Source of the DNA: Macrostomum lignano
Taxonomy: Eukaryota
Length of the DNA: 29,726 bases
Reading direction: 5' to 3'
Assembly (NCBI GenBank): GCA_002269645.1
Contig: NIVC01004976.1
Coordinates: 1 to 29,726 of the forward strand
The notes beneath the pieces are model-generated. The model saw only the letters and a list, made by a program, of their open reading frames with translations. It ran no database searches and was not told where the DNA came from. This document shows positions 5,863 to 29,726 of the stretch, in pieces. The number at the start of each line of letters is the position of its first letter. Within the stretch, counting starts at the first letter, position 1. Both the position numbers and the translations under genes were made by a program.

Positions 5863-8123
5863 TGAGTGAGGTTGCAGAGCATTTCAAAAATTTATACCTC
5901 CATAAGCCATTTTAGCACACAGAGCATTCTTAAAACGCTGTTGGTTGGTTGGAGCATGCATGGACCCAAACCCCGGATTCACATTTAGCCCCAAATTAAT
6001 CATGTGACAGCACTTGGGCAGGTAATTGAGCAGTCAAAATATTTTATTGTATTGTATAGCTACGAGTACATAGTTCTTTAGCAAATGGTAAAAATAAGAA
6101 ACTGCACTTGCATGTATTGATTGGGATCATTCAACTAGCAGTGCACACTCGATCTGCCCTCTATTGCATGCACAGTTCCTCTCAGAATTGCCTCTCCTTA
6201 TGATGGATGCATTTAAAATGCATTTAATTTGAGGTTGTTAAAATCTCAAATCACAATTGACAAATTCAAAATAACCGCGCCCTGACCTTTGACCTTGGAG
6301 ATTGAAGTTCTTTCGTCGTCTGTCTAGCTGTCTCACTGATCTCTGATTACATGTAGTTGTAGAATTAATAAAACAAAAATCAAAGTTACATTGAACTTAA
6401 ATTTACAAGGCCTTAAATAATTTTGGTTGCAACTTGGTAATTTTGAATCTGCACGTTCTAGAATCCAGAAGCTACATGTATAATTACTAGAACTTTCTAG
6501 CAGTCGGTTGCTTTGCTTTAACTAGGCCTAGCTATAGGGCCGCGCCTATACGGTAGTAGGTGCGATAAAAGTAGGAGGTTCCGAGGGAGTTTCTGGTTTT
6601 CTAAAAATGCATTTATTTTTCCTCAAGTCTGATCTGGTCTGGTCGTGTCTCGTGTCGTGGTGTTATTTTAAGCTAGGCCTAGGCCTAGCAATGTAAAAGC
6701 TTTATTTTTGTGAAAATTCTATCGGGAACAGAATCTCAAACTCATATACATATAGTCGTCATACATGTACAAACTACCTGATCGAGACATAACCATGCCC
6801 AGGTAAAATGAACCTTATAGCACACAAGTAGTACAGCTATAGGGCCTAATACAGCAGTACTACATTTATGATGAGTTTAGAATTTTGGACAGGTAGATAT
6901 TCTCTAGACTTGAGAAATGATATTAGTAGGCCTACATAATATCAATTATTTAAAATTGCAATTTGAAGCTCAAAAGTCTCTGTCTAAATCCTGCACTTTT
7001 TATATTAATAAATAATTTATGCCCTAGTAGGCCTACTTGTTTTTGTTTTGTTGTAGGTTGAATTAGGACAAATATTATAATCTAAGTCTAATAGAAAGTA
7101 CAAATGATGAAGTGCGTAGCAGCCATCTGCTACGTACTTCATCCAGAATATCTGGTATTTCCAGAATACCGGAAAATGATTTCACACTGAACCCTGTTTG
7201 TTATTTTTGGCTTATTAATTCATGCTCACGATTCTTTAAGTCCATGATTATAATATTAAAATATACTTGTAGGCCCGCAATAGTAGTCATGGATTTACGA
7301 ATTTTGTTTAAGTGCATGAGTCTATAATTGTTAAATCAAATTAGAATAAAAATTAATAGACAAAATGGAATTTTTTTAAATTATAACTCAACACATATCG
7401 GATTGCTATACTCGTATTGTGTTGTTCAGGGATGCATTTGGGAACAACAAAAAGTAGGCCCAGTTCATTTCAGTTTATGAATTACAAATGAATTTTTTAA
7501 TAGAAACTTATTGGAATGCCAGTTTCAAAATATCTTGACAAAAGTCCGCAAACATTCAAATTTGCACCAGGCTATAGACACTTACTTTTTGCACCATAGG
7601 CACTCATTTTGTGGCATTGCATGTGCTCATTTAAGTGTTTTAAACATTCATTTTGGCGCTAGTGGTGCTATATTTTGGCACTTTAAAACAAATCTATTGA
7701 TTGGGGAAACAGTGCAAATTAGGCCTACCTATATAGCATCAATCTCATAGCTTTTTTAAAGAGAGGGTGGCCCACGTATAACACGCCAAATTTAAAGTAA
7801 AACATTAATAACTTTGTCATTTGCAACCTATACGAGGTATTGACAAAATTTTAACACTTAATGTTGCCACAAGTATAGCATACTAGCCATGTAGCCCCCC
7901 ACTGGGGGGCCTTAAAAATGACACCAAATTGCCATAAATCAAAACTTTAATCAGCCAAAAAAGTTTCCTTCATCAACCCAAAACCCTTTCTCAATCAGCA
8001 AATAGTGCTTATCCTTTCAAGCACTAACTCTTAGTGCATATTGTCACTATGGCCGGGGCATATTCTGGTCTACAGCGGGAGCTCACAGCCTTAGGCCCCT
8101 CTTTATTAGCCTAACTCAAAGAA

Positions 8124-8681
8124 TCCCCCAGAAAGCAAGCATCCCCCAGACAGCAAGCATAAGCAAACATCCCCCAGACAGCAAGCAATCCCCTCAGACA
8201 GCAAGCATTCCTCAGACAGCAAGCATTCCTCAGACAGCAAGCATTCCTCAGACAGCAAGCATTCCTCAGACAGCAAGCATTCCTCAAACAGCAAGCATTC
8301 CTCAGACAGCAATCATTACTCAGACAGCAAACATCCCCCAGACAGCAAGCAATCCCCTCAGACAGCAAGCATTCCTCAGACAGCAAGCATTCCTCAGACA
8401 GCAAGCATTCCTCAAACAGCAAGCATTCCTCAGACAGCAATCATTACTCAGACAGCAAACATCCCCCAGACAGCAAGCAATCCCCTCAGACAGCAAGCAT
8501 TCCTCAGACAGCAAGCATCCCCCAGACAGCAAGCATTCCTTAGACAGCAAGCATTCCCTAGACAGCAAGCATTCCTCAGACAGCAAGCATCCCCCAGATA
8601 GCAAGCATCCCCCAGACAGCAAGCATTCCTCAGACAGCAAGCATTACTCAGACAGCAAGCATAAGCAAGCATTTCTCAGAC
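8124..8681. repeat. 18-bp minisatellite (CAGACAGCAAGCATTCCT) with a ~128-bp higher-order duplication
   Basis: About 30 direct copies. The same variant series recurs at 8281 and 8409. It explains the ORFs at 8106-8672. Confidence 0.95.
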
Positions 8682-8759
8682 CCAGGGCACACACAGATGG
8701 ACAATTTTTAGCATCAGCCAATGAAATGCTTCAGCAATGCAGTCAAATACATAGCAGCT

Positions 8760-12917: not shown

Positions 12918-13659
12918 ACAGCATACATTGTGCAATATCTAGCCAAGCCAGACAATTGGGCCAGCTAATAAGGGGTCCACCAAATAAGTTGCAAAAATGC
13001 CCAGCTGAAAATCTGCATGTATTTCTAATTAGATGATGAGGCATTTAGTATTAATAATACATTAATAGTTACTCATGCTGCTTACCCAAAGTTATGTAAA
13101 TTTTGCTTAGGTTTCTTTTATAAGTAGGCCTAAGTCGCATGGCCACTTGGCCGGTGAAATCAGGGGGTTACATATGCAGAAGAGCCATTTTTCTAAATAG
13201 GGCCTGGTCAATTTCAAGTTACCAAACTTAAAGAATATGACAATATAGATATGATAGTAGATAGTAGATCGTAGAGAGATACATCATCTATGATAGTAGA
13301 TAGTAGATAGTAGAGAGATATATCATATTTATATTGTCATATTCTTTAAGTTTGGTAACTTGAAATTGACCAGGCCCTATTTAGAAAAATGGCCCCTCTG
13401 CATATGTAACCCCCTGATTTCACCGGCCAAGTGGCCATGCGACTTAGGCCTACTTATAAAAGAAACCTAAGCAAAATTTACATAATTTTGGGTAAGCAGC
13501 ATGAGTAACTATTAATGTATTATTAATACTAAATGCCTCGTCATCTAATTAGAAATACATGCAGATTTTTAGCTGGGCATTTTTGCAACTTACTTGGTGG
13601 ACCCCTTATTAGCTGGCCCAATTGTCTGGCTTGGCTAGATATTGCGCAATGTATGCTGT
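12918..13659. repeat. Foldback: 339-bp inverted arms (12918-13256 and 13321-13659) around a 64-nt spacer with GATAGTA repeats
   Basis: Arms aligned by eye with about 8 mismatches and no indels. The centre is a tandem pair of ATGAT...ATCAT units. Confidence 0.95.
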
Positions 13660-14529: not shown

Positions 14530-15350
14530 CAATTTACCCATAAAAGAAACCATTAAGCAAAAATTAGAATGTGAATTTTAGTAAATAGCAGGAGTAACTA
14601 TGACTTGTAATGCCACTCTGGCCAGTGCTAGCTTGTACATTATATTAGCACGTACATGTCGCTACCTAACTTATGTACATATGGCATGCGGGTCTTGTGC
14701 ACGTTGCAATCAGATCGCTTCCAAATATATAAATATTGTCTCACCCTACTTGGAGGGTTAAGACCTTTTTCTTGCATGCCACAAATACTGCCTGATTCCT
14801 GAGTCATTACATGACTGTCTTATTAAGGCTAAATGCCTCATCATCTAATTAGTATTATATCTATTCTTTGGGTAGGCATTTTTGCAATTTACACCTAGTC
14901 TACCACTATTTATGGTAGCTGGATTGGCTAGGTTGGCTAGCAGTTGCGCATGTATGAGGCCAAGCACATAAAGTATCATATATTATGCACTAAGGATACC
15001 AAGTAGCACTTGCTTTATATGCTAAGCATTACACTATGTACCAAGTCTTTAAGAGTTTCATGACTGATTTTGAAATTGTTGAAACTTTAATCAAATTAAT
15101 AATGTTAGGCTAATAACTTATTCATAGTAATATTATAACTATATCATTCCTTTAAATTAAATGAGTACTGGCATATGATCACTGGCATAAGCCAAGGTAA
15201 GTAGTCACAAAAATGCCTATCCAAAGTATACATAGTATTAATTAGATGACGAGGCATTTTCCCTAAAAATTTAGTCATAGTTATACTCTTGCCGTCTACC
15301 CAAAATCACGTTTATTTTCTTAAGCTTCTTTTATAGGTAAGTCACATGGT
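14530..15350. repeat. Two diverged copies of the foldback arm in inverted orientation (about 14530-14965 and 15205-15350)
   Basis: TAAATGCCTCATCATCTAATTAG...GGCATTTTTGCAA near 14830-14890 pairs with CAAAAATGCC...AATTAGATGACGAGGCATTT near 15207-15260. Both match the 12.9-13.7 kb arms. Confidence 0.75.
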
Positions 15351-16449: not shown

Positions 16450-16995
16450 CAAGTGGTCCGGAACGGACCCGGAGCCAGAAAATCTCCAAGAGAGAGAAGC
16501 TCCGAAGAGGAAGCTCTAGTGAAGCCTTCCTGAAGAAACTCGCGTCGTGGACGAGTTCTTGCGGTAAGCCTTACTCATTTGCGCCCGTTGGTTGAGACGT
16601 CTCGCTCAAGTCTATTGAGACTTGAGTTTATTTGAGTCTGCTGAGACTCTTGAGTCTGTTTAGACTCCACTGGTTGCAGTCTCCAGAAGGACTGCCCCTG
16701 ATAGATCTTAGAAGACTATCAGTGGTTTCCGGAGCCATACCTAGAGTGCATAGAGGCACTACTAGAAGGAGTAGGCTTATATTAAACCGCAGTTTGGCGC
16801 AGGGATCCCCATTGTTAATTTGGAAGCTTCCGATTGGTCCGAACTACAGATACCGGCCGGCAAGAAGTCAAGAGGACAAAGGAGATAACGGACCAGATCA
16901 ACTGTTACCAGGCGCCTAAACTTCCTGAAGGACAGGAAAGTTACTGATCGCGATACTACGGACGAGGATTATTACGAGAGCTCTCATTTAAGGAC

Positions 16996-17577
16996 TCAAA
17001 GGTAATTGAATACCTTCATTTGATTACTGGGTTGCCTAGCTACAGAGCTAGAAGTGATTGTTCCTTGATTACAGTTGAGGACTGGTAATAAGGAACACAT
17101 CAGATATCCGCGCAAAACAAAGTTGATAAAATGTATCAGAGGTTCTCTAGTAGCAAGTTTAAAATACAGATAAAACAAAACCCACACGCCACAATGTCCC
17201 GTGGAGGGATGCTGAACAGAAAAGCGAGTAAAACTCCAAGTGCCTCCACACTCGCGGCTCAGCCACTGCGAAAATTCAGGCATTGGTTGCAGTCCTAGTG
17301 GGTCAAAAAATTCTCCTCGTCGCCCCGCGGCCCCAATCGGACCAGGTCCAACCCAAATAGCAATCCAATGCCGGCCAGGTAGGTTACTAGTGTCTGTGTT
17401 TGCAATTAAAAAATAACTTTGAGTGTCAAGCAAGCCACCGTTTCTTGCGGGCAGTAAAGGCAGAGAGTTGCTAGAGTAGACTCCCAAAAACACGGCGTGC
17501 CGGTAGATGCGTTGCAGTTTGCGGGATACTGCGGCCAGATAAATGTTTGTCAATCCGCTCGGGACGCCGCTTTTCAT
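16996..17577 (-). CDS. Adenain-like (C5 family) maturation cysteine protease
   Basis: NTD...PGRHW (His), FFDPLG (Asp), VQ...GHCG (oxyanion Gln and catalytic Cys). ATG overlaps the capsid stop (ATGA). Confidence 0.93.
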   Translation of the reverse strand: MKSGVPSGLTNIYLAAVSRKLQRIYRHAVFLGVYSSNSLPLLPARNGGLLDTQSYFLIANTDTSNLPGRHWIAIWVGPGPIGAAGRRGEFFDPLGLQPMPEFSQWLSRECGGTWSFTRFSVQHPSTGHCGVWVLFYLYFKLATREPLIHFINFVLRGYLMCSLLPVLNCNQGTITSSSVARQPSNQMKVFNYL

Positions 17578-18898
17578 TTCCAGGCGGTGCCAGGCACAAC
17601 GTCACGAAACTCCGTCAGCTGCAATTGCTTATCAAAGAGCCCTCCAACAATTACATTGTAGACACTTGCAGTAGCGGTGCTAAACCGCAGTTCCAAGCGC
17701 ACGCTGCCCTCTTTGTATAGCTGTGTTCCAACACCCACTCCCAGCTCACTGCAGAGATTGAACGCAAAGATGCCATATCCTCGAGCATACTCGTCCATTC
17801 TAAAGCCAATTTCTCTGCTCTGCATATACAGGCCCAGTTGCTGTAGCAACCAATTGTACTCCACCTCACCATTCTCCTTCGCCAGATTTACTTGCAGGGG
17901 GCGCGAAGGAACTGACTCTCCGTTCACAAACACAGCAATGCATGAAGCGTTTGCATGTCGAAAGTTGAACGGATTCGTATCCATGCTACCGTTGAAAGCT
18001 TTGTTGGTCACAAAAGCGACCAGCAGCAGTTTCGGCACGCCTCCCTGGAACATATTCTCGCGCGTGTAGCTGGAGGTTCCTTGCGGAATTGTGAAGGTGC
18101 TCATTTGCAGGCTGTTCAGCGGGTAAAGCGCATTATGCTTCTTGAGTCCCTGTGCATGGGCAGCCAGAACACTAGGCGATGGCAGCACATAATGAACTCG
18201 CAGCTCTGCACGCTCAATAACCACCAAATAGTCCTTCAGCGGTTCTGCACCGACGCCGGCTCCACTGAGCACAAACTTCGGATCGGAGGGAATCAACTTC
18301 AGTCGCAAGTTTGTCTTTGACAGCAAGAAACGTGGCTGACGGAACAAATCAAGGAACAACGGTCCTGAGAGACTGCAAGTTCTCCCTCCAGCAATCAACG
18401 CCACGCGCGATTTGCGTCCGACATTTGCATCCGTAGCAGAATCCATTTCTCCCGCAGTATCCTTGTAAAATCCCCAGGGCACCAATGCAGCCTTCTGAGC
18501 GATGCTTCCATACTCAAGCAGCGTCAGCAGCATACTCTTGTATGGATAGAGAAAGCTTCCGCCCTCGATAACGCTGTCTCCAATGCTAAGCTGCGCATCT
18601 TGAAACAGCGAGGCAATCGGCAGGTTGTTCAGACACACAAAGTTTTTTGCAGCATCGATGCTTTTGTTTTCCGAATCCACCACTCGAAAACTCACATTGA
18701 GCGCAGTCTCATGCAAGTCGAGATACAAATCCCCAGCCGGAGGAATTTCGAATTCAATTGGAGCACCAGCAGCGAGGCCATGCTGCGGCTGAATGTTCGT
18801 AAACTGACTCTCCAAAACACTAAACTGGACCGGAGAGGGGTCAAAAGAGACAATTCACTCTTCAGTGCGACAACATCCGGTCCCAGCAGCTGGTTCAT
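17574..18898 (-). CDS. Major capsid protein (double jelly-roll), about 441 aa after correcting a 1-nt deletion at 18843-18846
   Basis: PIEFEI...DL, NNLPIASLFQ, YPYK, PKLLLVAFV, FNG...NPFNF, FAFNL and VRLELRF motifs. The N-terminus MNQLLG...KSELSL (from 18898) joins FDPSPVQFSVLESQF if one T is added to the T-run, restoring the KSELxLFxPxPxQ start typical of Polinton capsids. Confidence 0.93.
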
Positions 18899-19392
18899 TC
18901 TTTATTAAACAGACTAAACAGACTCTTTGAAGCGCTTGCTTTGCCTCGTTTCTTGTGCCGCTTGCCACGAAGCTTTTTCCTGCCGGTTCTTGATTGCACA
19001 CCACGACCCTTCTGCTTGCTTGTCCTTGATAGTTTTCCTCGTCCGCGCCCCGCCTTGCTTATAGTAGCTGGCATCTTGTTGGTACGCGAACGCCCATGTT
19101 TCCTTCTCTTTGGGGGAGAGGCAGCCGGTTCGTTCCCAATTACTCCATAGTCGAATCCCCCTCCTCTCTTCTTTGCCTTTCGGGATTCTTCATCGCTATC
19201 TGCAAGGTAGGTCAATCCTCGTCGCAGCAGATCTTTGCCAGTATTGCGCAGAACAGGGTAAAACAAACGATTCGCAAGGCTTGACAAGAATCCGTAGCCC
19301 TCGTATACGGGAATTGAGCGCGAAGAGGAACTTCCGCGTCCACCCACCTGTTCATGGTTCGGGCCCGCGTAGAAACGAAACACGGGATCCAT
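18895..19392 (-). CDS. Basic virion core protein (adenovirus pVII/pVI-like), 165 aa from MDPVFRFY (ORF track starts at 19410)
   Basis: QVGG and YEGYGFLSSL glycine motifs, an amphipathic segment and a very K/R-rich C-terminal half. Stop overlaps the capsid ATG. Confidence 0.7.
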   Translation of the reverse strand: MDPVFRFYAGPNHEQVGGRGSSSSRSIPVYEGYGFLSSLANRLFYPVLRNTGKDLLRRGLTYLADSDEESRKAKKRGGGFDYGVIGNEPAASPPKRRKHGRSRTNKMPATISKAGRGRGKLSRTSKQKGRGVQSRTGRKKLRGKRHKKRGKASASKSLFSLFNKE

Positions 19393-19431
19393 TTGAATAC
19401 AGGCATACATTTAGCAAGTTCATGCTTACAT

Positions 19432-20634
19432 TTACTTATAGACACGTTTGAACAGTTTCTGGGTCTCTTCGTCCAGCTCTTGTTTCTTCAGCCACTGCGC
19501 CCGATATTCTGGTAGATTTCTCCATTTTACAAAATAGCGTCGATTCCCGCCCGGCAGCTTCTCCACTCGAAGAACTTTCTCTATTTCATTCACGTCGTTT
19601 TCAGGTCCCTCAACTTGCTGAAGCTCTGCCTCATTAAAAAATCCCTTGAGCGGTTCGAAGTCATCTTCTGGATCCTCGAGCACATACATGGGCGGGGTTC
19701 CTTCGCGGACTCGTCCTATTCGATAGACAGCATTGCTCCAAACAGTCGAGTAACCCTTTTCAAACGTTCCTCTGCGTCGCGCGATTCGAACCCAATCGCC
19801 AGGCACATAACGAGGCGAAGTCGGTATTGCACCAAACATCTGATCCCACAGAATTCCCTGCAGATGGGGATCTGCTTGCACCACTTGTGGCGTTAGGCCA
19901 TACAATGAACGGTTCGCACTTTGGTTTAGATTTTTTTCCATCTTTGGTAAAATGTCATACCACTGTGGCAAGTTAATTGACCTGAAATAGCGCGACAACC
20001 GCTCCTTCAGAGTTCGAATGATTCGTTCAGCCATTGCGGCCTTGTATGTGCTTTGGCTTACAAAAAAGTGAACTCCCTCTTCACGCAGCATCGTTTGTGT
20101 TGCACGTCCTAAAAACTCCATCCCAGCATCCCCCTGCAAATACTTTGGTTTGAAACCGGTGTTGAAAATCGCACGCAACACTTGACTAACTTCTGTGGGC
20201 TTTTTTGTGTACAGCGGTCGAAGACGAACAACTCGTGTTAGACAATCAATCAAAACGAGAACAAAGCGATAACCTTTATTGATGTCCTTGTACTGCTGCA
20301 AGTCAGCAAGGTCAATTTGAAATTGAAATTTTGCTGTTGGAGGCACGCTAATCCGGGGCGTGGGAAATCGCAGGCGCGCCTTGCGAAATAAGTTATATTC
20401 GCGTGTTCCCCGCGCCCATTTGTCTACAAACTTTTTTGCAGCAGCAAAGGTAAGTCCTGCGAATTTCTTTCGTACAGCGCGAACCAGCTCCGCCTTGTTC
20501 CCTCCAAATGAAGTTGGATTTTCCAAGTCAAAAAAATTCTCGCTCAGAAATTTCCACGCGTCTTGTTCATTTGCAGCCGCGTCGTTCAAACTAGTTCGCG
20601 CCCGCAACCGCTGTTTCGTCCTCTGCTCCGACAT
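19432..20634 (-). CDS. Retroviral-type DDE integrase with C-terminal chromodomain-like module
   Basis: QIDLAD, LQGDAGMEF and AERIIRTLK (D, D, E). GDWVRI...FEKGY..W is typical of Polinton integrases. Chromo-like tail EIEKVL...YFVKW...W. Confidence 0.96.
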   Translation of the reverse strand: MSEQRTKQRLRARTSLNDAAANEQDAWKFLSENFFDLENPTSFGGNKAELVRAVRKKFAGLTFAAAKKFVDKWARGTREYNLFRKARLRFPTPRISVPPTAKFQFQIDLADLQQYKDINKGYRFVLVLIDCLTRVVRLRPLYTKKPTEVSQVLRAIFNTGFKPKYLQGDAGMEFLGRATQTMLREEGVHFFVSQSTYKAAMAERIIRTLKERLSRYFRSINLPQWYDILPKMEKNLNQSANRSLYGLTPQVVQADPHLQGILWDQMFGAIPTSPRYVPGDWVRIARRRGTFEKGYSTVWSNAVYRIGRVREGTPPMYVLEDPEDDFEPLKGFFNEAELQQVEGPENDVNEIEKVLRVEKLPGGNRRYFVKWRNLPEYRAQWLKKQELDEETQKLFKRVYK

Positions 20635-20806
20635 TCTCGAACGAAATGGTGTTGCTCTGCTTAGTGCAGCATTTGATATTTGTCCGCAGGTTTACTGTCA
20701 CATTGTCTACTTCATCTTGAATCAATTCACCGCAAAGCGATCCATGGAAGCAAACGCGAAAGATTTCCACCAGAAAACGAAAAAATCGCTGGCCCAAAGA
20801 AGCCAT
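20591..20806 (-). CDS. Small hypothetical protein (71 aa from MASLGQRFF)
   Basis: Fills the gap between two conserved genes on the same strand and overlaps the integrase start by 44 nt. No recognisable motif. Confidence 0.35.
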   Translation of the reverse strand: MASLGQRFFRFLVEIFRVCFHGSLCGELIQDEVDNVTVNLRTNIKCCTKQSNTISFENVGAEDETAVAGAN

Positions 20807-20890
20807 AACATACACACGCAAATGTTTTATATTTATCTCGAATAAAAACAAGTTTGCATATAGATTAACCAAACCACCAGCATTGCATAC

Positions 20891-21640
20891 TCAATTTAGA
20901 GTTTCATAGTTTTCAAGCATTTCCATATCAACGCCTTTTCTCTCGCCATGTGGCATTTCAGCAGAACTGTCGGCCTCCTTGTCTCCAAGATTTGGTCCGC
21001 CATTTTGCAAATCTCCACGAAGATGCTTCCCAATCATGCTGGGATCTAAATTCCTCTTTTGCAGATATTCTATAAAATTTGATAGTCCACTCGGTGGCCG
21101 CTCTACGTGGCGCTTAAGCGGCTTGTCTCGCACAACATATTCCATTAGATTTTTAACCTCATCTTGAGTAAGTTCAGATGGTAGTGCAGCCTCCTCGCTC
21201 TCTTCAAACACCTTGTCTGCAAGGCGTTTATATCGGGCCCTCAAAGCTTTCGGAATGCTTGTTTCTTCAACAGTAATGAAGCTTCCAGCAGATTCCTTTT
21301 TAACTTTGCTCGGAGGCGCAGGTGGTAAAGGCTGAAAATAATCTCGACGCGCGTGAAGAAGCCGACTTTCCAACTGTGAGCGCTGCAGGTGTGCGCTTGT
21401 ATTGGGCGGGTGCTGAGTAGAAGCAGCAGCCGCATCAAGTTCATCTAACCGTTGTCGCATCCCAACCAGATTTTTGCCTAGTGCCTCGCGTGGCCCGTCC
21501 AAAACGCTAGTTCGAGGTTCCTCGTGCTCCGGCAGAGAGGTATTGGCTTCATTTGTAGGGGGAGTTTTTTTATCACACATCATATTGTATGTTGCCTCGG
21601 GAAGTAGAACCATCCGCTGAAGCCCGTCGTGCCGACTCAT
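20891..21640 (-). CDS. Conserved Polinton protein of unknown function (PW/PZ type, exact label uncertain)
   Basis: N-terminal RMVLLP and C-terminal PSGLSNFIEYLQKRNLDPSMIG resemble the KKMVLVP...PxGxxxFxxxLxxxNxPxxxIGN pattern I recall from Polintons. ATGA overlap with the upstream gene. Confidence 0.7.
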   Translation of the reverse strand: MSRHDGLQRMVLLPEATYNMMCDKKTPPTNEANTSLPEHEEPRTSVLDGPREALGKNLVGMRQRLDELDAAAASTQHPPNTSAHLQRSQLESRLLHARRDYFQPLPPAPPSKVKKESAGSFITVEETSIPKALRARYKRLADKVFEESEEAALPSELTQDEVKNLMEYVVRDKPLKRHVERPPSGLSNFIEYLQKRNLDPSMIGKHLRGDLQNGGPNLGDKEADSSAEMPHGERKGVDMEMLENYETLN

Positions 21641-22080
21641 TTCTTGTTTTGAATATTCCGCACAAGAGTTGCTGCTCCAGCTGCTGTGCCCGCAATTCCG
21701 GACGTAATTCCTAGCGCTGTTCCAATGGCAGGCAAGGCCGAGGTGATGCCAGCAATGATGGGCGCCAGGAAAGGAAGGAAGCCTCCGTTTTGAACAATAA
21801 TTTTCTTCCTTTCAACTAGACTCTTTCCACCGTTCAGCAGCTTGCGTATCACAGGCGCGTGTTTTTGCAATCGGCGCTGATCGCAGGCTTTTATCGGCAC
21901 GCGCCGCTTGACAATATTCAGCAACAGTTCAAGTAGACAGCGGACTTCCGTCAGAGTCAAGCTTTGCAGAAATTGGCGGCGTTGGTGCTTATCTTTCAAG
22001 CGGGCCGCACTCTGCAATAAAATGGCACACTTAGAAAGCGAGCAGAGGCTCTTCCTAGCTTTTTCTGTTAATAAAGGCAT
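21637..22080 (-). CDS. Small basic Polinton protein with an adenovirus pX-like hydrophobic C-terminus
   Basis: CLLELLLNIVKRRVP...LQKH...RKL...RKKIIVQNGGFLPFLAPIIAG. The GG|FLPxLxPII tail resembles adenovirus pX (GG|ILPLLIPLIAA). Confidence 0.75.
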   Translation of the reverse strand: MPLLTEKARKSLCSLSKCAILLQSAARLKDKHQRRQFLQSLTLTEVRCLLELLLNIVKRRVPIKACDQRRLQKHAPVIRKLLNGGKSLVERKKIIVQNGGFLPFLAPIIAGITSALPAIGTALGITSGIAGTAAGAATLVRNIQNKK

Positions 22081-22137
22081 TTAAATTATTGGTCAAATCA
22101 TACTCAACACCCCAAAGTTTGCTTATAAATTAGTCAC

Positions 22138-23127
22138 CTAGTCAATTCTAGGACGAAAATGGAGCACCGCCACAGTATGCGAGCCCGGTTGAAATTGTAT
22201 TCCTTTGCCACGCTGATCAGTCAGTCGAATTGAAATCTCGCTGATGCCCTGACGATTCACTCCAACATAGTAAGGATTTGTCAAGGAACTATGTTCATGC
22301 GTTACTTCGTGTCCCTTCCGCTGCAAATCCACGACGCGCAACAGTGGAACAGATGTGCTTCCAACGGGCTGATAGTCGATGATGTCAGTGTAGCAATGCA
22401 TATACTGCTTGCTATTGTCGTCCCCAGCACCGGACGGCTCACCAGGCAAATATTGTATGGTAAATGTCCACGGGTGCACAAGCTTCCAAACATTTTTTTT
22501 CAGAGCGTCGTCCACTGAACCACTTTGTAGAGATTTCATGCGTTCTCCATCGCCCAAAAATTTCACAGCATGATATGGGTCCAGAACAAAATTAAAAATC
22601 ATAGTATACTTATCGTTCAATCTATCCATCTTCGCTGAAACCTCTTCCAAAGTCCGTAGAGAAGCCTCACTCCATTCACCTTCTTCATTGCCTATCCCCG
22701 CTCGAACCACAACCCACTCGTCTAGGGCAAATGTACTGAGAAACGTCATTGGAATTTCCACATGAACCGATCGGCTACCACCGTTTCGCAGGAACCACTG
22801 ATATGTGATTTTTGCTCCCGAGCCCGCCTCCGCTTGCCTCCACAAAAGATATGCCTCCAAGTTTGCTTGGGACCACAACTTCACAAATCGAGGTGCTGTT
22901 GAAGAAAAATACGTTTGCACGTCTCTTTGATAGTAGACAATTTCCTTTTTATCTAACGAAGAGTCCTTTGCAGCCGAAGCAGGAAACCCTCCGCAGATTA
23001 GCTCAACCAGTGCTACTTCATAGCGCGTTCCAACATTCAGTGGATCCTTTAGCCGGACTCGAAACTCGCTGGGTGAATTATCTGCATAACTCTTGTCATT
23101 CGAAGGCAAAAACACATAAAAACTCAT
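22138..23127 (-). CDS. Minor capsid protein (penton, single jelly-roll)
   Basis: MSFYVFLPSN...NSPSEFRVRL...YEVALVEL at the start. YTDII..QPVG...PLLRVV...NPYYV...I.IRLTDQRG..IQF..G.....LHFR at the end. ATG at 23127; the track start at 23133 is TTG. Confidence 0.9.
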   Translation of the reverse strand: MSFYVFLPSNDKSYADNSPSEFRVRLKDPLNVGTRYEVALVELICGGFPASAAKDSSLDKKEIVYYQRDVQTYFSSTAPRFVKLWSQANLEAYLLWRQAEAGSGAKITYQWFLRNGGSRSVHVEIPMTFLSTFALDEWVVVRAGIGNEEGEWSEASLRTLEEVSAKMDRLNDKYTMIFNFVLDPYHAVKFLGDGERMKSLQSGSVDDALKKNVWKLVHPWTFTIQYLPGEPSGAGDDNSKQYMHCYTDIIDYQPVGSTSVPLLRVVDLQRKGHEVTHEHSSLTNPYYVGVNRQGISEISIRLTDQRGKGIQFQPGSHTVAVLHFRPRID

Positions 23128-23160
23128 TTTCAAAATTTCTACAAAGGAGCAAAGTGCAAT

Positions 23161-23868
23161 CTATGGATTGCTTATAAAATCAAGTGAAACAGAGTTGCTT
23201 TTACCAGAGGTGTACGCAAGCTGTTTGTCACCCGGGAAAATACCAGTACGAAGCCTTAAAAAGTCGGGAGTTTCTTGTCGCAGATCAATAAACAGGTATG
23301 AATAGGGCCTATTGTCAGTTGCGTTTTCATAGACACGAACTAGAAAGTTGCTCCTCTTTGGAAACATTTGCTTCCCTAGGCTTTGAACAACCGTTCGATC
23401 GCGAATATTTCGGGTCAGGCAGATGTAGCTAGCAGAGAGGCTTCGCGAGCGCGCTTCAGCATCAGAACGATGAAAGAGATTCTGACATAAATAGAGACAA
23501 GTTAGTGGTGTGTGGTGGGCATATTTTGTAAAAATTGCTGTAAATTCGGGGGACTTGGCCATTTCACTCTGGAGATCATCGACAACCAGCAAATCGTGTG
23601 GGCGAAGTTGAGAGATAAGCTCGAGCGGAAATCCTCGAATCAAATTATGCTGCCCGCTCCCGCCCTCCTCCCAGCTTGAACGAATGCGGTGCTGTTCACC
23701 AGGACTCAGGTCCGTGCCATGACACCACACGAGACGCGTTGGCGCTTGCTTAAATAACAAATTTCGTTCGCGCAGCAAACGCAGCGCCCATTCAGTTTTG
23801 CCAGAGTTTGATGGTCCGGCCAAGATGATTGAGGAATCGTGTGCCAACTGCAGATTGAAAGTTTCCAT
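23161..23868 (-). CDS. A32-like (FtsK/HerA) genome packaging ATPase
   Basis: Walker A GPSNSGKT, Walker B LLVVDD, plus HH, QNLF and PYSYLFID motifs. Confidence 0.95.
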   Translation of the reverse strand: METFNLQLAHDSSIILAGPSNSGKTEWALRLLRERNLLFKQAPTRLVWCHGTDLSPGEQHRIRSSWEEGGSGQHNLIRGFPLELISQLRPHDLLVVDDLQSEMAKSPEFTAIFTKYAHHTPLTCLYLCQNLFHRSDAEARSRSLSASYICLTRNIRDRTVVQSLGKQMFPKRSNFLVRVYENATDNRPYSYLFIDLRQETPDFLRLRTGIFPGDKQLAYTSGKSNSVSLDFISNP

Positions 23869-23874
23869 TTGTGT

Positions 23875-24368
23875 TCAGGCTGCCAATCGCTGCTTAGCGT
23901 GCATCACCTTAGCCACGAATTTTGAAGCAAGGCGTTCTCCCCACCCAGTATTCGGATCGCTTATAATCTCTCTAGCTCCGGCTTCTAACAACCGATCAGC
24001 TTCCAGACGAGAGTTTGTGTCCGAGCTCTTTTCGTATGCAACATCATGTAGTAGGCAAAGATCATCCAACCGGTTTTTCCCTCGCTGTCCTTCCGCAAGC
24101 CGTTTTCGCAACCGCGTGCCCCTTAATTAAGAGCGAATTTAATACTTCCTAGTTAGAACAGTGTCAAACTAAATCATGAAAAAGTTTGGCTCACTTACGG
24201 TCCACAAAAATTGTAACCAGGGAGGTGGACCTCAAATGGTAGGTGATTGATTAACCAGTTTACAATCCCAGATCCTCTCTGAACACGTTTGCTAGAGCGC
24301 GATTTCCGATTCGGGACAGATTTCCTCTTTTGCTTGCAGACACCTTTTCTGCGTTTTGATGCGTACAT
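23875..24368 (-). CDS. Parvovirus-type phospholipase A2 (PLA2X-like), two exons: 24368-24199 and 24121-23875, 138 aa
   Basis: Spliced product reads MYASKRRK...VQRGSGIVNWLINHLPFEVHLPGYNFCGP|GTRLRKRLAEGQRGKNRLDDLCLLHDVAY...ADRLL. The CGPG Ca loop and HD dyad are restored only by removing the 77-nt GTAAGT...TTAAG intron. Confidence 0.9.
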
Positions 24369-24420
24369 TTTGTTGCTTAAATAGTAAAGACTTGAAAACC
24401 AATAGCAAATAATTTAGTTT

Positions 24421-24740
24421 AGCTTATATGCGTTAAGGATTCAGATACAGATATATTTGTTCCTTGCAATTAGCATAACTTATAGTCTTTATATGCATGC
24501 AGAATTGTTTATTCTTGAATAAAAGATAGCTTATATGCGTTAAGGATTCAGATACAGATATATTTGTTCCTTGCAATTTTGGAGCATAACTTATAGTCTT
24601 TATATGCATGCAGAATTGTTTATTCTTGAATAAAAGATAGCTTATATGCGTTAAGGATTCAGATACAGATATATTTGTTCCTTGCAATTTTGGAGCATAA
24701 CTTATAGTCTTTATATGCATGCAGAATTGTTTATTCTTGA
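24421..24740. repeat. Three tandem AT-rich units of about 111 bp (starts 24421, 24528, 24639) between dUTPase and the structural block
   Basis: Near-identical units; the first lacks 4 nt. Each carries TATAAGC, TATAAGT and TATAAA on the minus strand and AATAAA-type signals. Confidence 0.93.
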
Positions 24741-24807
24741 AAAAAAGAATGAACTGCAGTAATTTCCAGATACTACCGCTCTTGCGCGCAATTTAAACCT
24801 GCAATCT

Positions 24808-25677
24808 TTACATCCCCGTGCTGCCAAAGCCTGAATCGCCCCGCTGCTTGCAAGCTTCTTGTTGAACGATTGCGTCCGCCAGATTCTTCATCTTCTCTTC
24901 TTCATCAACCTTGGCGGTCTCCGCAACTGACGATGCTGACGCTGACAACTGACGCTGGTTGTCCAGCGCTTCACGCTTCTTCCCGCGAGCGATAGTGTAG
25001 TTCTCTACCTTGACCGGAGCGATTTCCGCCTTCTCCAGAACCAGCTGCGCAATCCTTTCGCCGATGCGAACATGATAGTCTCGTATGCCGTGGTTGAAGA
25101 GAATCACCGTAATTCGTCCGCAGTAGTCTGGGTCAATTACTCCGCCGCCCACCGTGATTCCGTGAAACGCTGACAGACCAGAGCGCCCAGCGATTCTTCC
25201 ATAGGTGCCAGCCGGTACTCGGACTGAAATCCCAATATCAAAAATCGCTCGTCCCTGCGCAGGGACGGTCTTGGTCTCGGCTGCAGTCAGATCATACCCG
25301 ATAGAGCCCTCTGTCTGTCTGGCCGGAACCGCAGCATGATTGCTGAGAAGGCGGACAATTAGATTTTTCTCGATCGGTGGTGAGCCTGCGAGGTATTGTT
25401 GACACCAATCGGGATTTAGGCGTAGCGGAACTGGCGCTGCGTCTTTACAGCTGCTAGTGTCACTTGGATTTAGAGATTCTTGCTGCTGGCGCTGCATTGT
25501 ACTGGCTGAAACATTGAAAATAAATTTTTTGTTTGCATTCTCGGGAGTGGGAGTTGGTGGCGGGACTGGGAAATTGCACAAACCACTCGTTTGTGTATAT
25601 GGCGAAATGAACAGTTTCGATAATTGGCTTTTCCTACTTCTTAAACTCGGTTGGCTAGGCGAAGAGGACGACTGCAT
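24808..25677 (-). CDS. dut: dUTPase with S/P-rich N-terminal extension and an elongated linker before motif V
   Basis: Motifs I-V: GSIGYDL, IAGRSG, GGVIDPDYCG, ERIAQL and RGDSGFGSTG. Confidence 0.95.
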   Translation of the reverse strand: MQSSSSPSQPSLRSRKSQLSKLFISPYTQTSGLCNFPVPPPTPTPENANKKFIFNVSASTMQRQQQESLNPSDTSSCKDAAPVPLRLNPDWCQQYLAGSPPIEKNLIVRLLSNHAAVPARQTEGSIGYDLTAAETKTVPAQGRAIFDIGISVRVPAGTYGRIAGRSGLSAFHGITVGGGVIDPDYCGRITVILFNHGIRDYHVRIGERIAQLVLEKAEIAPVKVENYTIARGKKREALDNQRQLSASASSVAETAKVDEEEKMKNLADAIVQQEACKQRGDSGFGSTGM

Positions 25678-26006
25678 TTTTCGGACAAAAGTTAAACTAA
25701 AGTCTCAACATCTGGGCTTATATACTCTTGCAAAAGAAGGAGCGAAAAACCAATCACGTTCGTTAGTCATTCAATACACATTTATTCTAGAGCGCTGTGT
25801 CAGCCAACGAAAATGAGTGAACCTCAAGAGATAGGACACCATGCTAAAATGATGACTAGTCTACACACGATGCCTGGCATATATGGTGTTAATGTACAAA
25901 GCAAAAGTCAATTTTCATCCATCGAATAGTCCTCCTTTTCCGAATCGATTGTTGCCTGAAATTAAAAAAACGAAAAAATATTAAGCTAAAGATGCTACTG
26001 TATCAT

Positions 26007-29000
26007 CTAGATGCTAAACAGTATCAAGAAAGTAATTCTTGCCTGCGTTTCGCATGCTGCTCGCAGCCGCCAATGTCCGAATGGTTGAGAAGCAAGGAGG
26101 GTTGTCCAAGCGCGCTTTGTATCAAAAAATCCGAGCGCGAGCTTCTTCTGTTCCATGAGAAAAACAACTTTCTTCTTAGAAGCAATTCGAGCGAAGCTTG
26201 CATACATCACTCTTCTCTTCTCCAAGACCGAGAGGTAGGCCGTGTGCTTGAACGTGCGAGCCACTTGCTTGCTCACGCCTTTGCATCGAGAGAGTTGCCG
26301 AATCGTATCGGTAACGTAGAGAAAAGAGTAGTTCTTTGGTCGTAAAAATACCAACTCGATTGGAACCGCTCCAGCAAATTCGTCTTTCCATGCAAGCAGC
26401 CGACCCTTGTGTTGGGTAGAATAAAGGGCATGATCCGGCGGATAGTTGCTGGTATCAAGTAGTCCTTGAGCGATCAGGTCCTTGAACAATGAATTATAGG
26501 GCGTGTCACCAGGTCTGCGCATCACCAGTGCCATCATCAGACTGTCGGTGTCGCCTGCCAGAACGCGTGCACATGAAAGCGAATGATGAGCCTGAACATG
26601 GTTGTAATAAAAATTGTAAACCATAGTTTTGGCAATGTCCAGAATTGACGCGCCAATGATAATTGGCTTGTTAAGCAAAACTTGACGAGGAGATAGACTA
26701 ACTCCCGCCAAATTCTCGTTGTAAATGATAACATCTAGGAAGCTTTCCATGCTGACATAGGACTCCAGCTTTGCAGCGTCGGTGCACATCTTGAAGCACA
26801 ATCGGTCACGAACACGTTGCAGAAACTTGCCAAACAAAGCATTGTTGAGTAGCTTGAACAGATCACGTTCAAATTCCGTCTTGGCTTCTATTCGTCGGCT
26901 AATGTTGCGCTCAATGTAAGAGCGTAATATTGGCTTCTCGGTGAAACAGATGACGCGATAGACCCTTGTGACTCGCATCCCCAACTCGAGGTAAAGTCGC
27001 AATGCACGGTGGTGCAACACATATTCGCGCTTGTGCTCGACAGAACCGATGAGCTTGCGCGCAGGGCTCTTGAATGCCTTCACGTCTTGGTAACAGCTGG
27101 CAGAGGCATATCGCTCGGGGTTCAGTTGTCGTTGAAGTGCTGTCCAATCTTGCCGCATTTGATCCGTCAGCCGATCTTCTCTCACAATCTCGTGCCCAAT
27201 CGCCAGTGGGAGGTCAGCAGTGCTATCGTGTAGAAACTCGGGATAATGCAGATCGACTGTGAAATAAGCTCCTCGCTCCTCAGAACAAAACTTCGTCAGC
27301 CAGTCTAGCATTTGACTCTTCACTTGCGGATTTTCGAGGTAATAGCCTGCGCCGGGGGTGTTATCGCATGGTATGCGATTCACATCTCGAGCAGAAAGCC
27401 AACGAAAGTTCTTGTATGGTAGAGGTTGTACCATGCAACTAGAATAGAGCGAGTTTGCATCCAAGTAAACCAAAAAGGTGTTTTCTGGTGCATTTGCCCT
27501 CAGGCTCGCAAAGTTGCCCTCGTCCCTGTCCAAATCTTGACGAATGAGCGAAACCAACGAGTTATTTGCTGTGGTTACGTGACGTGTCCCAAAGCTGAAA
27601 CCGCCGCGCACAGAGCTCTCAATTTCAGCATACATGGCTGTATCAGTGAAGAGTTGAATTGGCTCTGCAAGTTGAAGCAAGCACGCCGCCAGGCTGTACA
27701 TTGGAGAGCCAAGAAAATGAGCGGGATCAATTTGATACTCTTTGATTGCATTATTTCTGAAATTTTCAAACACGTCGCAGAGCAAAAGCACATCCAATCG
27801 CAGGTAGGCAGTAGTGTAGTCACGCAGAGTGTGGCAGCCGAATTCCTCCCAGCTGGCCTTGGCTCGAGCGTAGTCGGCGTCAGAGCAATGCTGCATTGTT
27901 AGTCTATTGAAAAACCTCTCCTTTGCTGGCAGAGATTTTACGCTGTCCAATTTGTCCATTCGATCAAGGAACGAATAGGGAAAAACTCCCTTCTGCTGCA
28001 ACGTCTCCGGTCGTAGTCTCGGGTATTGCTCCAATAGTTTGCTTGTGTGCACCAGCTGAGAAGGGAGCAGGCGTTCAGCTAGACTTGCTAGGCTAGTTGG
28101 TAAATACGCAAAAGTGTCCTTGAAGCAGATTTCAAACCAAACGTGGTGCTGCCCATCAGCAGCAGGCAGCTTGAACTTGATAGAGAACGTTTTGAATCGC
28201 TCGCGATTTTCAGGCAAAACATAAAGTTTAACTTCTTCACCGGAAAAGGTTTCGTAAACTTGGCGAACAATAAACTTGCCATCATATGCCGACAGGTTGT
28301 GAAAATAGACCAACAGCCGGTGGCGATTCAAGCTCAATTTGCGATTGCAGCTGACACACAAAACTCCCCTAGGCAGGCCAGTAAGATGATCGTGATCCAG
28401 GACTTGGCGTTCATCAAGCTCAAAAACGCGATTACATAGCTGACAATGCTTGTGGCGCCGCTTCTCGACACGGTCCGTCAGATGAAGATATTTTTTAAGC
28501 AAAGGAACATATGTTTCATCCTTGCGTGTCGGTAGATCTCGCTTGCTAGCTGGCGGAGCTTGATCAAAAACAGCCCAATGCAATCATCTCCACCGTTGGG
28601 CCGCGAATAGATAACCGAACAGGCGGACCTTTCGCCATATAGTGAAGGCAGCCGGCTTTCAACTCCGGGACAGGCCACCACCCGATAACCGATGCAAAGC
28701 GGTTTGTGGATCTCGCGAATCTTTGAGAGGCTCCCACATGTGGAGCGCTGGCGTCCGGCGGTGCACATAGGCATTCCATGTCGGCATAAACTACGTACAG
28801 CGCCGGCAGCCTTGCAGCATGTTCGGTAAACTCAAGACTAGCATTCTCCGGCAGAGGCATCTTCTCAATTGGCGGCCTGCGCACCTCCCGTATTTGTGGC
28901 AGCGGCTCGGACATCCAGCGGAGCGAGGACTGGCTCTCGCACCCTCCGATGCATTGGTGCTCGTTCAGAATGAAGTCCCATGATATTTTTTCCGAAAACG

Positions 29001-29726
29001 GAGCCAGGCAAGTTGGGCAGACACGCCGTCGTTTGCCTCGGCAGCTTAGAAGTGAGTTCAAATTACGAACAGGCATGTAGTGGCCCAGCTTGAATTTGCC
29101 ATATGGTGGGATGAACAAACAGTTTGCCATGAAGCGGGCTGTCTCCGGGGAACAGTGGCGCGAAAAGTAATGCACGGCAGTCTTTGCTTCGTAATCCCAA
29201 ACGAATACACGCAAACTTAACCCTGGATTTTTGTTCAAAAATTTAATATATGAGCATTTGGCATGTCTCGCTGATCCGACTTGTAATTTAGTTCCAAAAT
29301 CCAATTCTCGCAAATGTTCTGTATAGCTGCTCTTCAAATGAGGACGCTTCACTTGGGCATAAAAGATGCTTGCTACGATTGCATACTTGAAGCAGTTAGG
29401 CTGCCGATTATTGTTTGGCTTCAAAAATATTACGGCTCCTCTCTTGCATCCAACCGACAACGGGACTTTAAATGTTCTGGCCTCGCCGCCGCCGCGCCGC
29501 CGCCGCCGCCGCTACCACCGCCCAGCTGTTGCTCTGCCGCTGTGGAATTCCTACTGCCCGGGTTGTAGCTTGGCCGAGAACGAGACTTCCTATAGGGGCA
29601 TAGCATCAGGTCAAGCTGTTCAATGCTGTCATACTTCCAACCACTGCCACGTTTCTGGAAGCTGTCAATTTTGCTTGTCACTTCGGTGATTGCACGCATA
29701 AACCAGTCGTTGAAACTCTCCTCAGA
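26007..29726 (-). CDS. polB: Protein-primed family B DNA polymerase (>1,200 aa in window, N-terminus beyond edge), split by three 1-nt frameshifts
   Basis: GSGW and CFKYAI in the N-terminal region. ExoI VVYADME, ExoII FHNLSAYD, ExoIII YLRLDV. PolA YLDANSLY, PolB KLLNNALFGK, PolC GDTDS, then PKNY, CKGV and FDTKR...PFGH. The pieces are track ORFs 29430-29699, 28564-29460, 28478-28774 and 26007-28583, each offset by one missing base. Confidence 0.95.

Follow-up and report, generated by a model that had tools for sequence, protein, structure and literature searches.

Does the phospholipase A2 (PLA2) gene of an integrated Polinton carry a spliceosomal intron, or has the gene been broken? The question is raised by a 77-nt segment at 24122..24198 (minus strand) of contig NIVC01004976.1 from Macrostomum lignano, which we analyzed over its full 29,726 nt (the window). 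The initial annotation of this DNA read the segment as an intron that splits a viral PLA2 gene. We predict that the stretch from 24198 to 24122 is indeed a real U2 (GT-AG) spliceosomal intron, with a probability of about 80%, judging from the sequence and from its relatives. The readings that we weigh are not all mutually exclusive, and neither are the degrees of confidence that we attach to them. Statements about published work refer to the accessible portions of the sources cited.

The segment lies in a Polinton/adintovirus-like element that extends from about 17.1 kb to the end of the window, with all of its genes on the minus strand. Recognizable by Pfam matches are a protein-primed DNA polymerase B (pPolB) at 26007..29726 (PF03175, E = 4e-15), whose 5' part is spread over several frames and runs off the window; a dUTPase at 24808..25677 (PF00692, E = 9e-30); a packaging ATPase of the A32-like type at 23161..23868 (Pox_A32, E = 0.0036), whose start lies 7 nt beyond the stop of the PLA2-like gene; and an rve integrase with a C-terminal chromodomain at 19432..20634 (PF00665 and PF00385). 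A 147-aa ORF at 21637..22080 has a C-terminal pX-like domain (Adeno_PX, E = 1.7e-5), and we take it, by resemblance, to be GasderminX-like. Three further genes have no Pfam match and are presumed by resemblance: a 329-aa ORF at 22138..23127 is probably a penton or minor capsid gene, 17574..18898 (frame broken near its 5' end) is probably the major capsid gene, and 17103..17577 probably encodes an adenain-like protease. The combination of pPolB with an rve integrase that has a C-terminal chromodomain is what defines adintoviruses and Polintons (10.1101/2024.03.25.586562), and the window has both. Features of this adintovirus type would by themselves point to an animal host.

This copy of the element is damaged, with frame changes in the 5' part of the polymerase (27960-29726) and at the 5' end of the capsid gene (17574-18898). 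We checked these breaks for donor-like sites and found two weak motifs and no convincing intron. Because the copy is damaged elsewhere, selection on the PLA2-like gene may have lapsed. In the capsid region, the sequencing runs that cover this DNA are not all identical; in the polymerase part, the frame changes may reflect either decay or assembly error. We also note that a high-copy repeat at about 16900-17103 adjoins the protease gene. At 17103, contigs from two of the runs (X1 and X17) diverge from the window into about 460-470 other letters, so the protease end of the element differs between samples.

The PLA2-like gene can be read as two exons. Exon 1 (24199..24368, minus strand) has 170 nt, or 56 codons plus 2 nt, and ends in phase 2; it begins with an ATG and encodes a basic leader, with 14 lysines or arginines in the first 31 amino acids, followed by a conserved stretch that reaches the first half of the presumed calcium-binding loop. 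Exon 2 (23875..24121, minus strand; 247 nt) encodes the region of the catalytic HD helix. Both exons are free of stops, and joined they make 139 codons including the stop, or 138 amino acids, which is the frame that had been proposed. If the segment is left in, the frame meets a TAA inside the donor and the product has 57 amino acids. With table 11, a gene caller recovers just this fragment of 57 amino acids and one of 78 amino acids from exon 2, so the initial annotation was right to expect that ORF finders would truncate the gene.

The case for joining the two exons rests largely on conservation across the junction. At E <= 0.001, exon 2 retrieves 470 relatives, and our motif counts are from the best 150 of these. 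Among the 139 with at least 12 upstream residues, GP stands directly before the site in 132 and GT directly after it in 125; in the window, the intron splits a CGP-GT motif, and no residue is gained or lost. Exon 1 matches the column pattern of these 139 relatives. By BLASTP, it also matches P0005 (19/37 identical, E = 2e-15) and P0006 (18/26 identical, E = 5e-13). On a profile of the relatives, which was built only from proteins chosen by exon 2, exon 1 aligns to positions 3-29 (32 bits) and exon 2 to positions 31-109 (98 bits), while the two exons read through, with an X where they meet, align to positions 3-109 and score 145 bits, as compared to 98 for exon 2 alone. The PF08398 model is split in the same manner, with exon 1 on positions 2-13 (weak alone) and exon 2 on positions 22-58 (E = 0.0095); each half is under the curated cut-off, and the uninterrupted P0005 scores 41.9 bits versus 23.9. 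A shared-word search with exon 1 did not find any longer homologue. By BLASTP, the profile, and PF08398, then, the upstream exon is homologous to the N termini of PLA2s, and the alignment that could have refuted the initial annotation came out in its favor.

The YXGXG calcium-binding loop and the HD dyad are motifs of secretory and parvoviral PLA2s (PMC10267136). In the window, the presumed loop spans the exon junction and has F where the motif has Y, as do 52% of 126 relatives (from the best 150 of 470), and the dyad is kept in exon 2, as it is in 147 of the 149 relatives listed. The placement of the intron within the presumed loop, which had also been claimed, follows from the way the motif is split. 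The top match of exon 2 in the Atlas (0.95) is to a cluster in which 45% of the members have PF08398. By the PF08398 matches on its two exons, the predicted product has a parvovirus-VP1-like PLA2 domain.

Structural comparisons gave weaker matches. With a model of P0005 (pLDDT 71), rice PLA2 takes Foldseek ranks 1-6 at E values of at least 0.32, which is weak, and VIA-align places a PLA2 at rank 21 (Z 6.4, rmsd 3.6, 83 aligned) in a list of mostly unrelated helical bundles. A sequence search of the PDB returned only matches with E of at least 0.39, and 4 of the 5 are PLA2s.

The gene had been likened to PLA2X, and in the strict sense this name does not fit: exon 2 ends after 81 amino acids without a pX domain at the C terminus, and it is the separate ORF at 21637-22080 that matches Adeno_PX. 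Short forms are found elsewhere too. Among the 149 listed relatives, 19 are similarly short and 48 have a pX-like motif in the tail; the near relatives P0005-P0008 and P0012 are short like the PLA2 of the window.

Turning to the segment itself, it runs from GTAAGT to TTAAG, its GC content is 31% (versus 45% in exon 1 and 52% in exon 2), and it has stops in all three frames. So the anatomy that was first described, with a GTAAGT donor and an AG acceptor around 77 AT-rich nucleotides, is correct. GTRAGT is the consensus of U2 donors, and RTATCCTT is that of U12 donors. On the minus strand of 16900-29726, GTAAGT occurs only once, as the donor of this intron. By a simple nine-position score, the donor reaches 5 of 7, and 3 other sites among 608 GTs score higher. 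The 3' end is less typical. The acceptor is AAG instead of the commoner YAG, and the pyrimidine tract is poor, with none that is clear. As proposed, there is a CTAAC (24152..24156, minus strand; nt 43-47 of the intron), and it is a candidate branch point, but its role is not established: CTRAY arises in the same zone in 16% of shuffled sequences, and two AGs (nt 50 and nt 54) lie between it and the acceptor. Of the AGs that we tested in the 140 nt 3' of the donor, only the one at nt 77 leaves the frame usable; the AG at nt 50, though in frame, leads to a stop, and the AG at nt 5 is too near the donor.

We considered and rejected other kinds of interruption. The donor is GTAAGTGA and not RTATCCTT, which rejects a U12-type intron. 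Self-splicing introns of group I or II have a structured ribozyme core and are several hundred nt long; the segment has 77 nt and a fold of -9.0 kcal/mol, and a search of 23000-26100 gave no match to Rfam at E <= 1. Ribosomal hopping was rejected as there is no matching landing codon 3' of the segment.

Contigs from three runs (X1, X5, and X17) bridge the segment, and no difference within it is listed. Because they bridge it unchanged, we take the segment to be genuine DNA and not an assembly error; the runs are from three studies, one of which is possibly the source of the window itself. Four of 24 listed runs were covered (X1, X5, and X6, presumed to be RNA, and X17), and no joint between 24121 and 24199 is listed for them; among the X6 pieces listed, none spans the intron. 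These data are contigs, which lose rare forms. Contig depth is flat across genes and intergenic DNA in X1, X5, and X17, and these runs may be DNA, so they do not bear on splicing.

Genuine DNA could still be a chance insertion of AT-rich sequence, an intron look-alike that disabled the gene as the integrated copy decayed. At the base composition of the element, the probability that the ends of a random insertion read GT...AG, in either register, is 0.009, and for GTRAGT...AG it is 8e-5. Such an insertion would also have had to leave both exons intact, with no residue lost or duplicated, and in the four nearest relatives, the gene calls lack what lies upstream of the same point (see below). The mediocre context of the branch point and the acceptor does suit a look-alike, as do the other lesions in the element, and there is a precedent for the error: 96% of vertebrate Maverick loci are degraded, and Genewise takes insertions in them for introns (PMC8097293). 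On balance, we consider a look-alike to be very improbable.

If the segment is an intron, then how widely is it shared? At the intron site, viral loci are contiguous in 29 of 29 cases (these are the confirmed loci out of 41 pattern matches). Intron-bearing viral copies could have been caught, because one of the search patterns lies wholly upstream of the site. Since all 29 are contiguous, the intronless state is the norm for the family, and the segment would be an intron gain. On the other hand, the four nearest relatives (P0001-P0004; 77-88% identity) are all called as starting after the intron site, and two of them have the same 78-aa start as the table-11 call for the window. Just 5 of the 149 more distant relatives listed start after the site. 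In a FastTree tree of the exon-2 region (154 sequences), these five are 1.9-2.4 substitutions per site away, and the four nearest relatives group with the window (support 0.918), inside uninterrupted forms. The starts from gene callers suggest that the intron is common to the window and its four nearest relatives, keeping in mind that such calls could also result from contig ends or from other lesions. Databases of proteins tend to miss copies that carry an intron, and some entries, P0005 for one, could derive from cDNA. Probably, a PLA2-like gene native to the Polinton gained an intron once, and we lean towards the view that the intron travelled with the element family and was not acquired by one copy.

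Other searches were negative. Exon 2 matched none of 46 stretches from viral contigs and none of 596 from metagenome contigs, and the single match in 54 stretches from prokaryote genomes has 15 residues and is taken as chance. A pattern that combined the motif and the donor hit no viral stretches and 18 metagenome stretches, with no PLA2 genes among the latter (best tblastn E of 0.02). No exact-sequence match to any of nine proteins from the window was present in the protein collection.

Introners have many similar copies in a genome and often have terminal repeats or a target duplication. A host introner, or a small transposon, that arrived after integration would make the intron real and selectively neutral. 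The segment does not have the look of one: it has no terminal inverted repeat, its ends share a direct repeat of only 1 nt, and there is no second copy of the 77 nt within the window. Nor is there a repeat-like rise in depth over the bin with the intron in any of four runs (at 90% likeness), unlike what is seen for the repeat below 17103. Also, the pattern within the clade suggests that the intron is older than this copy. It is true that, in dinoflagellates, introners enter Polinton-like proviruses, for the most part once these have integrated (PMC11957031), and that the GC content of the intron is nearer to that of the element's intergenic DNA than to that of its exons. Even so, we judge this origin to be improbable. 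Both a look-alike insertion and a neutral introner fit less well than a real, constitutive intron.

Under the reading that we prefer, the 77 nt would be an ordinary short U2-type intron, acquired by a single lineage of PLA2-like genes in Polintons/adintoviruses. TATA-like promoters would drive transcription of the element in the host nucleus, and the host spliceosome would remove the segment, which would give a stand-alone parvovirus-type PLA2 of 138 amino acids with a basic leader. Judging by analogy with parvovirus VP1u, this PLA2 may help the particle or its DNA to cross a membrane; the parvoviral PLA2 domain is thought to act on membranes (PMC8502044). Unspliced RNA would yield only the 57-aa piece, which, from the frame that we observe, is without the HD dyad.

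A candidate for the TATA-like promoter element of the PLA2-like gene is a TATAAG at 24423..24428 (minus strand), 60 nt upstream of the ATG, which we picked after inspection. Between 17103 and 29726, the coding strand has 12 copies of TATAAG and the opposite strand has none; the copies are at 25722, 24428, 23965, 23176, 22127, 19440, and 19063, plus five in a tandem repeat. TATAAG lies within 70 nt (at 30-60 nt) upstream of 5 of 10 ORF starts, as compared to 6% of random windows, and TAAGC is within 70 nt of 8 of the 10. TATAAG may serve as a common promoter motif within the element; allowing for its choice after inspection, it is a hint of host nuclear transcription. The occurrence at 23965 is inside exon 2 of the PLA2-like gene, 97 nt before the start of the ATPase. 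The tandem repeat has a 111-nt unit (two exact copies and partial ones) and lies between the dUTPase and the PLA2-like gene (24365..24748); it carries repeated TATAAG and AATAAA and is the source of a spurious 95-aa ORF.

The initial annotation went further and suggested that the intron might be a switch that limits a membrane-damaging enzyme. Retention of the intron, or use of the AG at nt 50, would give a dead 57-aa piece, and only efficient splicing late in activation would give active PLA2, so that host membranes are spared until then. This is the only intron-like segment that we found in an otherwise intron-free element, its acceptor is weak and has a competing AG, and the unspliced frame stops inside the donor. 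Also, in densoviruses, splicing decides whether PLA2 is included in the proteins, and a stand-alone PLA2 is toxic when expressed alone (PMC10267136). However, almost any intron would bring in a stop if it were retained, and the relatives do without this one, as none of the 29 viral loci is interrupted. The anatomy is just as compatible with a constitutive intron. The switch is not supported, and we hold it to be unlikely. Most simply, the intron is constitutive. A more elaborate version would have an animal Polinton lineage gain one intron in the calcium-binding loop of its only lytic enzyme and keep it through 12-23% divergence, with weak or alternative 3' splice sites that gate PLA2 to the particle-making phase. 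We find this unlikely.

How does the predicted intron compare to what is known from related elements? As in the adintoviruses with PLA2X (Starrett et al. 2021, PMC8502044), a parvovirus-VP1-like PLA2 gene is the neighbor of the packaging ATPase, and the element also has pPolB and a chromodomain integrase. Unlike PLA2X, the gene in the window is split by a GT-AG segment, and pX is on a separate ORF. An arrangement with pX on its own ORF is tied to the GasderminX of the Beta class (PMC8502044). Having both a PLA2 without pX and a separate ORF that bears pX and resembles GasderminX, the element shows marks of both the Alpha and the Beta virion modules, as these are defined in PMC8502044. In its accessible parts, the main text of that paper does not mention splicing and uses "intron" once, in an unrelated context, and neither word appears in the accessible portion of the supplement.

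The premise of the initial annotation, that Polinton genes are generally intron-poor, is supported, in that the core genes are described as intronless. Intact vertebrate Mavericks have no introns (PMC8097293), and in nematode Mavericks, the core genes are intronless and introns are found in cargo genes that derive from the host (10.1101/2022.07.12.499685). The element in the window resembles these Mavericks/Polintons in its core gene set and in being an endogenous, partly degraded copy. It differs in that the predicted intron is in a native gene of viral type, whose relatives lack it.

Introns do occur within Polinton-like elements of protists, namely introners in dinoflagellate proviruses (PMC11957031) and group I introns in cryptophyte PLVs (PMC12220804), and in this sense the window is similar. 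However, those are multi-copy introners or self-splicing introns, while the window has one short GT-AG intron with no sign of a repeat and no Rfam match. Densoviruses share the PLA2 family, with the YXGXG loop and the HD dyad, and they share host splicing, which is predicted here (PMC10267136). In densoviruses, splicing joins or removes the whole PLA2 region (PMC10267136), while here the loop itself is cut by the predicted intron, and in a dsDNA element that integrates. Mirusviruses are rich in introns (PMC12768974). The accessible portions of PMC5718144 and PMC11296320 contain nothing on introns in genes of this kind. Among the papers listed by our literature search, none is on an intron in a Polinton PLA2 gene. 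We are only moderately surprised by the prediction, because related nuclear DNA viruses (adenoviruses and densoviruses) splice routinely.

Still, the intron would be an exception among elements that are usually described as intron-free. The idea that Polintons are nuclear viruses run by host transcription has so far been inferred, and a spliceosomal intron that is inherited in a native gene of the virion module would, if true, be direct genetic evidence for it. The exon junction would also be a clean RT-PCR marker to distinguish true transcripts from DNA carry-over. Finally, surveys that demand intronless ORFs, like those that rely on prokaryotic gene callers, would count genes of this kind as broken: exon 1 is missing from the gene call for the window itself and from all four of the nearest proteins in the database.

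The host flank has some features of its own. At 1521-2507 on the minus strand, there is a 328-aa host-side ORF with a start that resembles a signal peptide and a hydrophobic end; its nearest named Atlas cluster is SID-1-like (score 0.89), which we treat as a lead only. At 12918-13659, there is an inverted repeat of 339 nt, with arms that are 98% complementary and 64 nt between them, and a related stretch lies near 14811-14892; the inverted repeat looks like a MITE or foldback element. Long tandem arrays with units of 20 nt, 18 nt, and 8 nt are found at 1-1500, at 8108-8715, and from 9428 onward.
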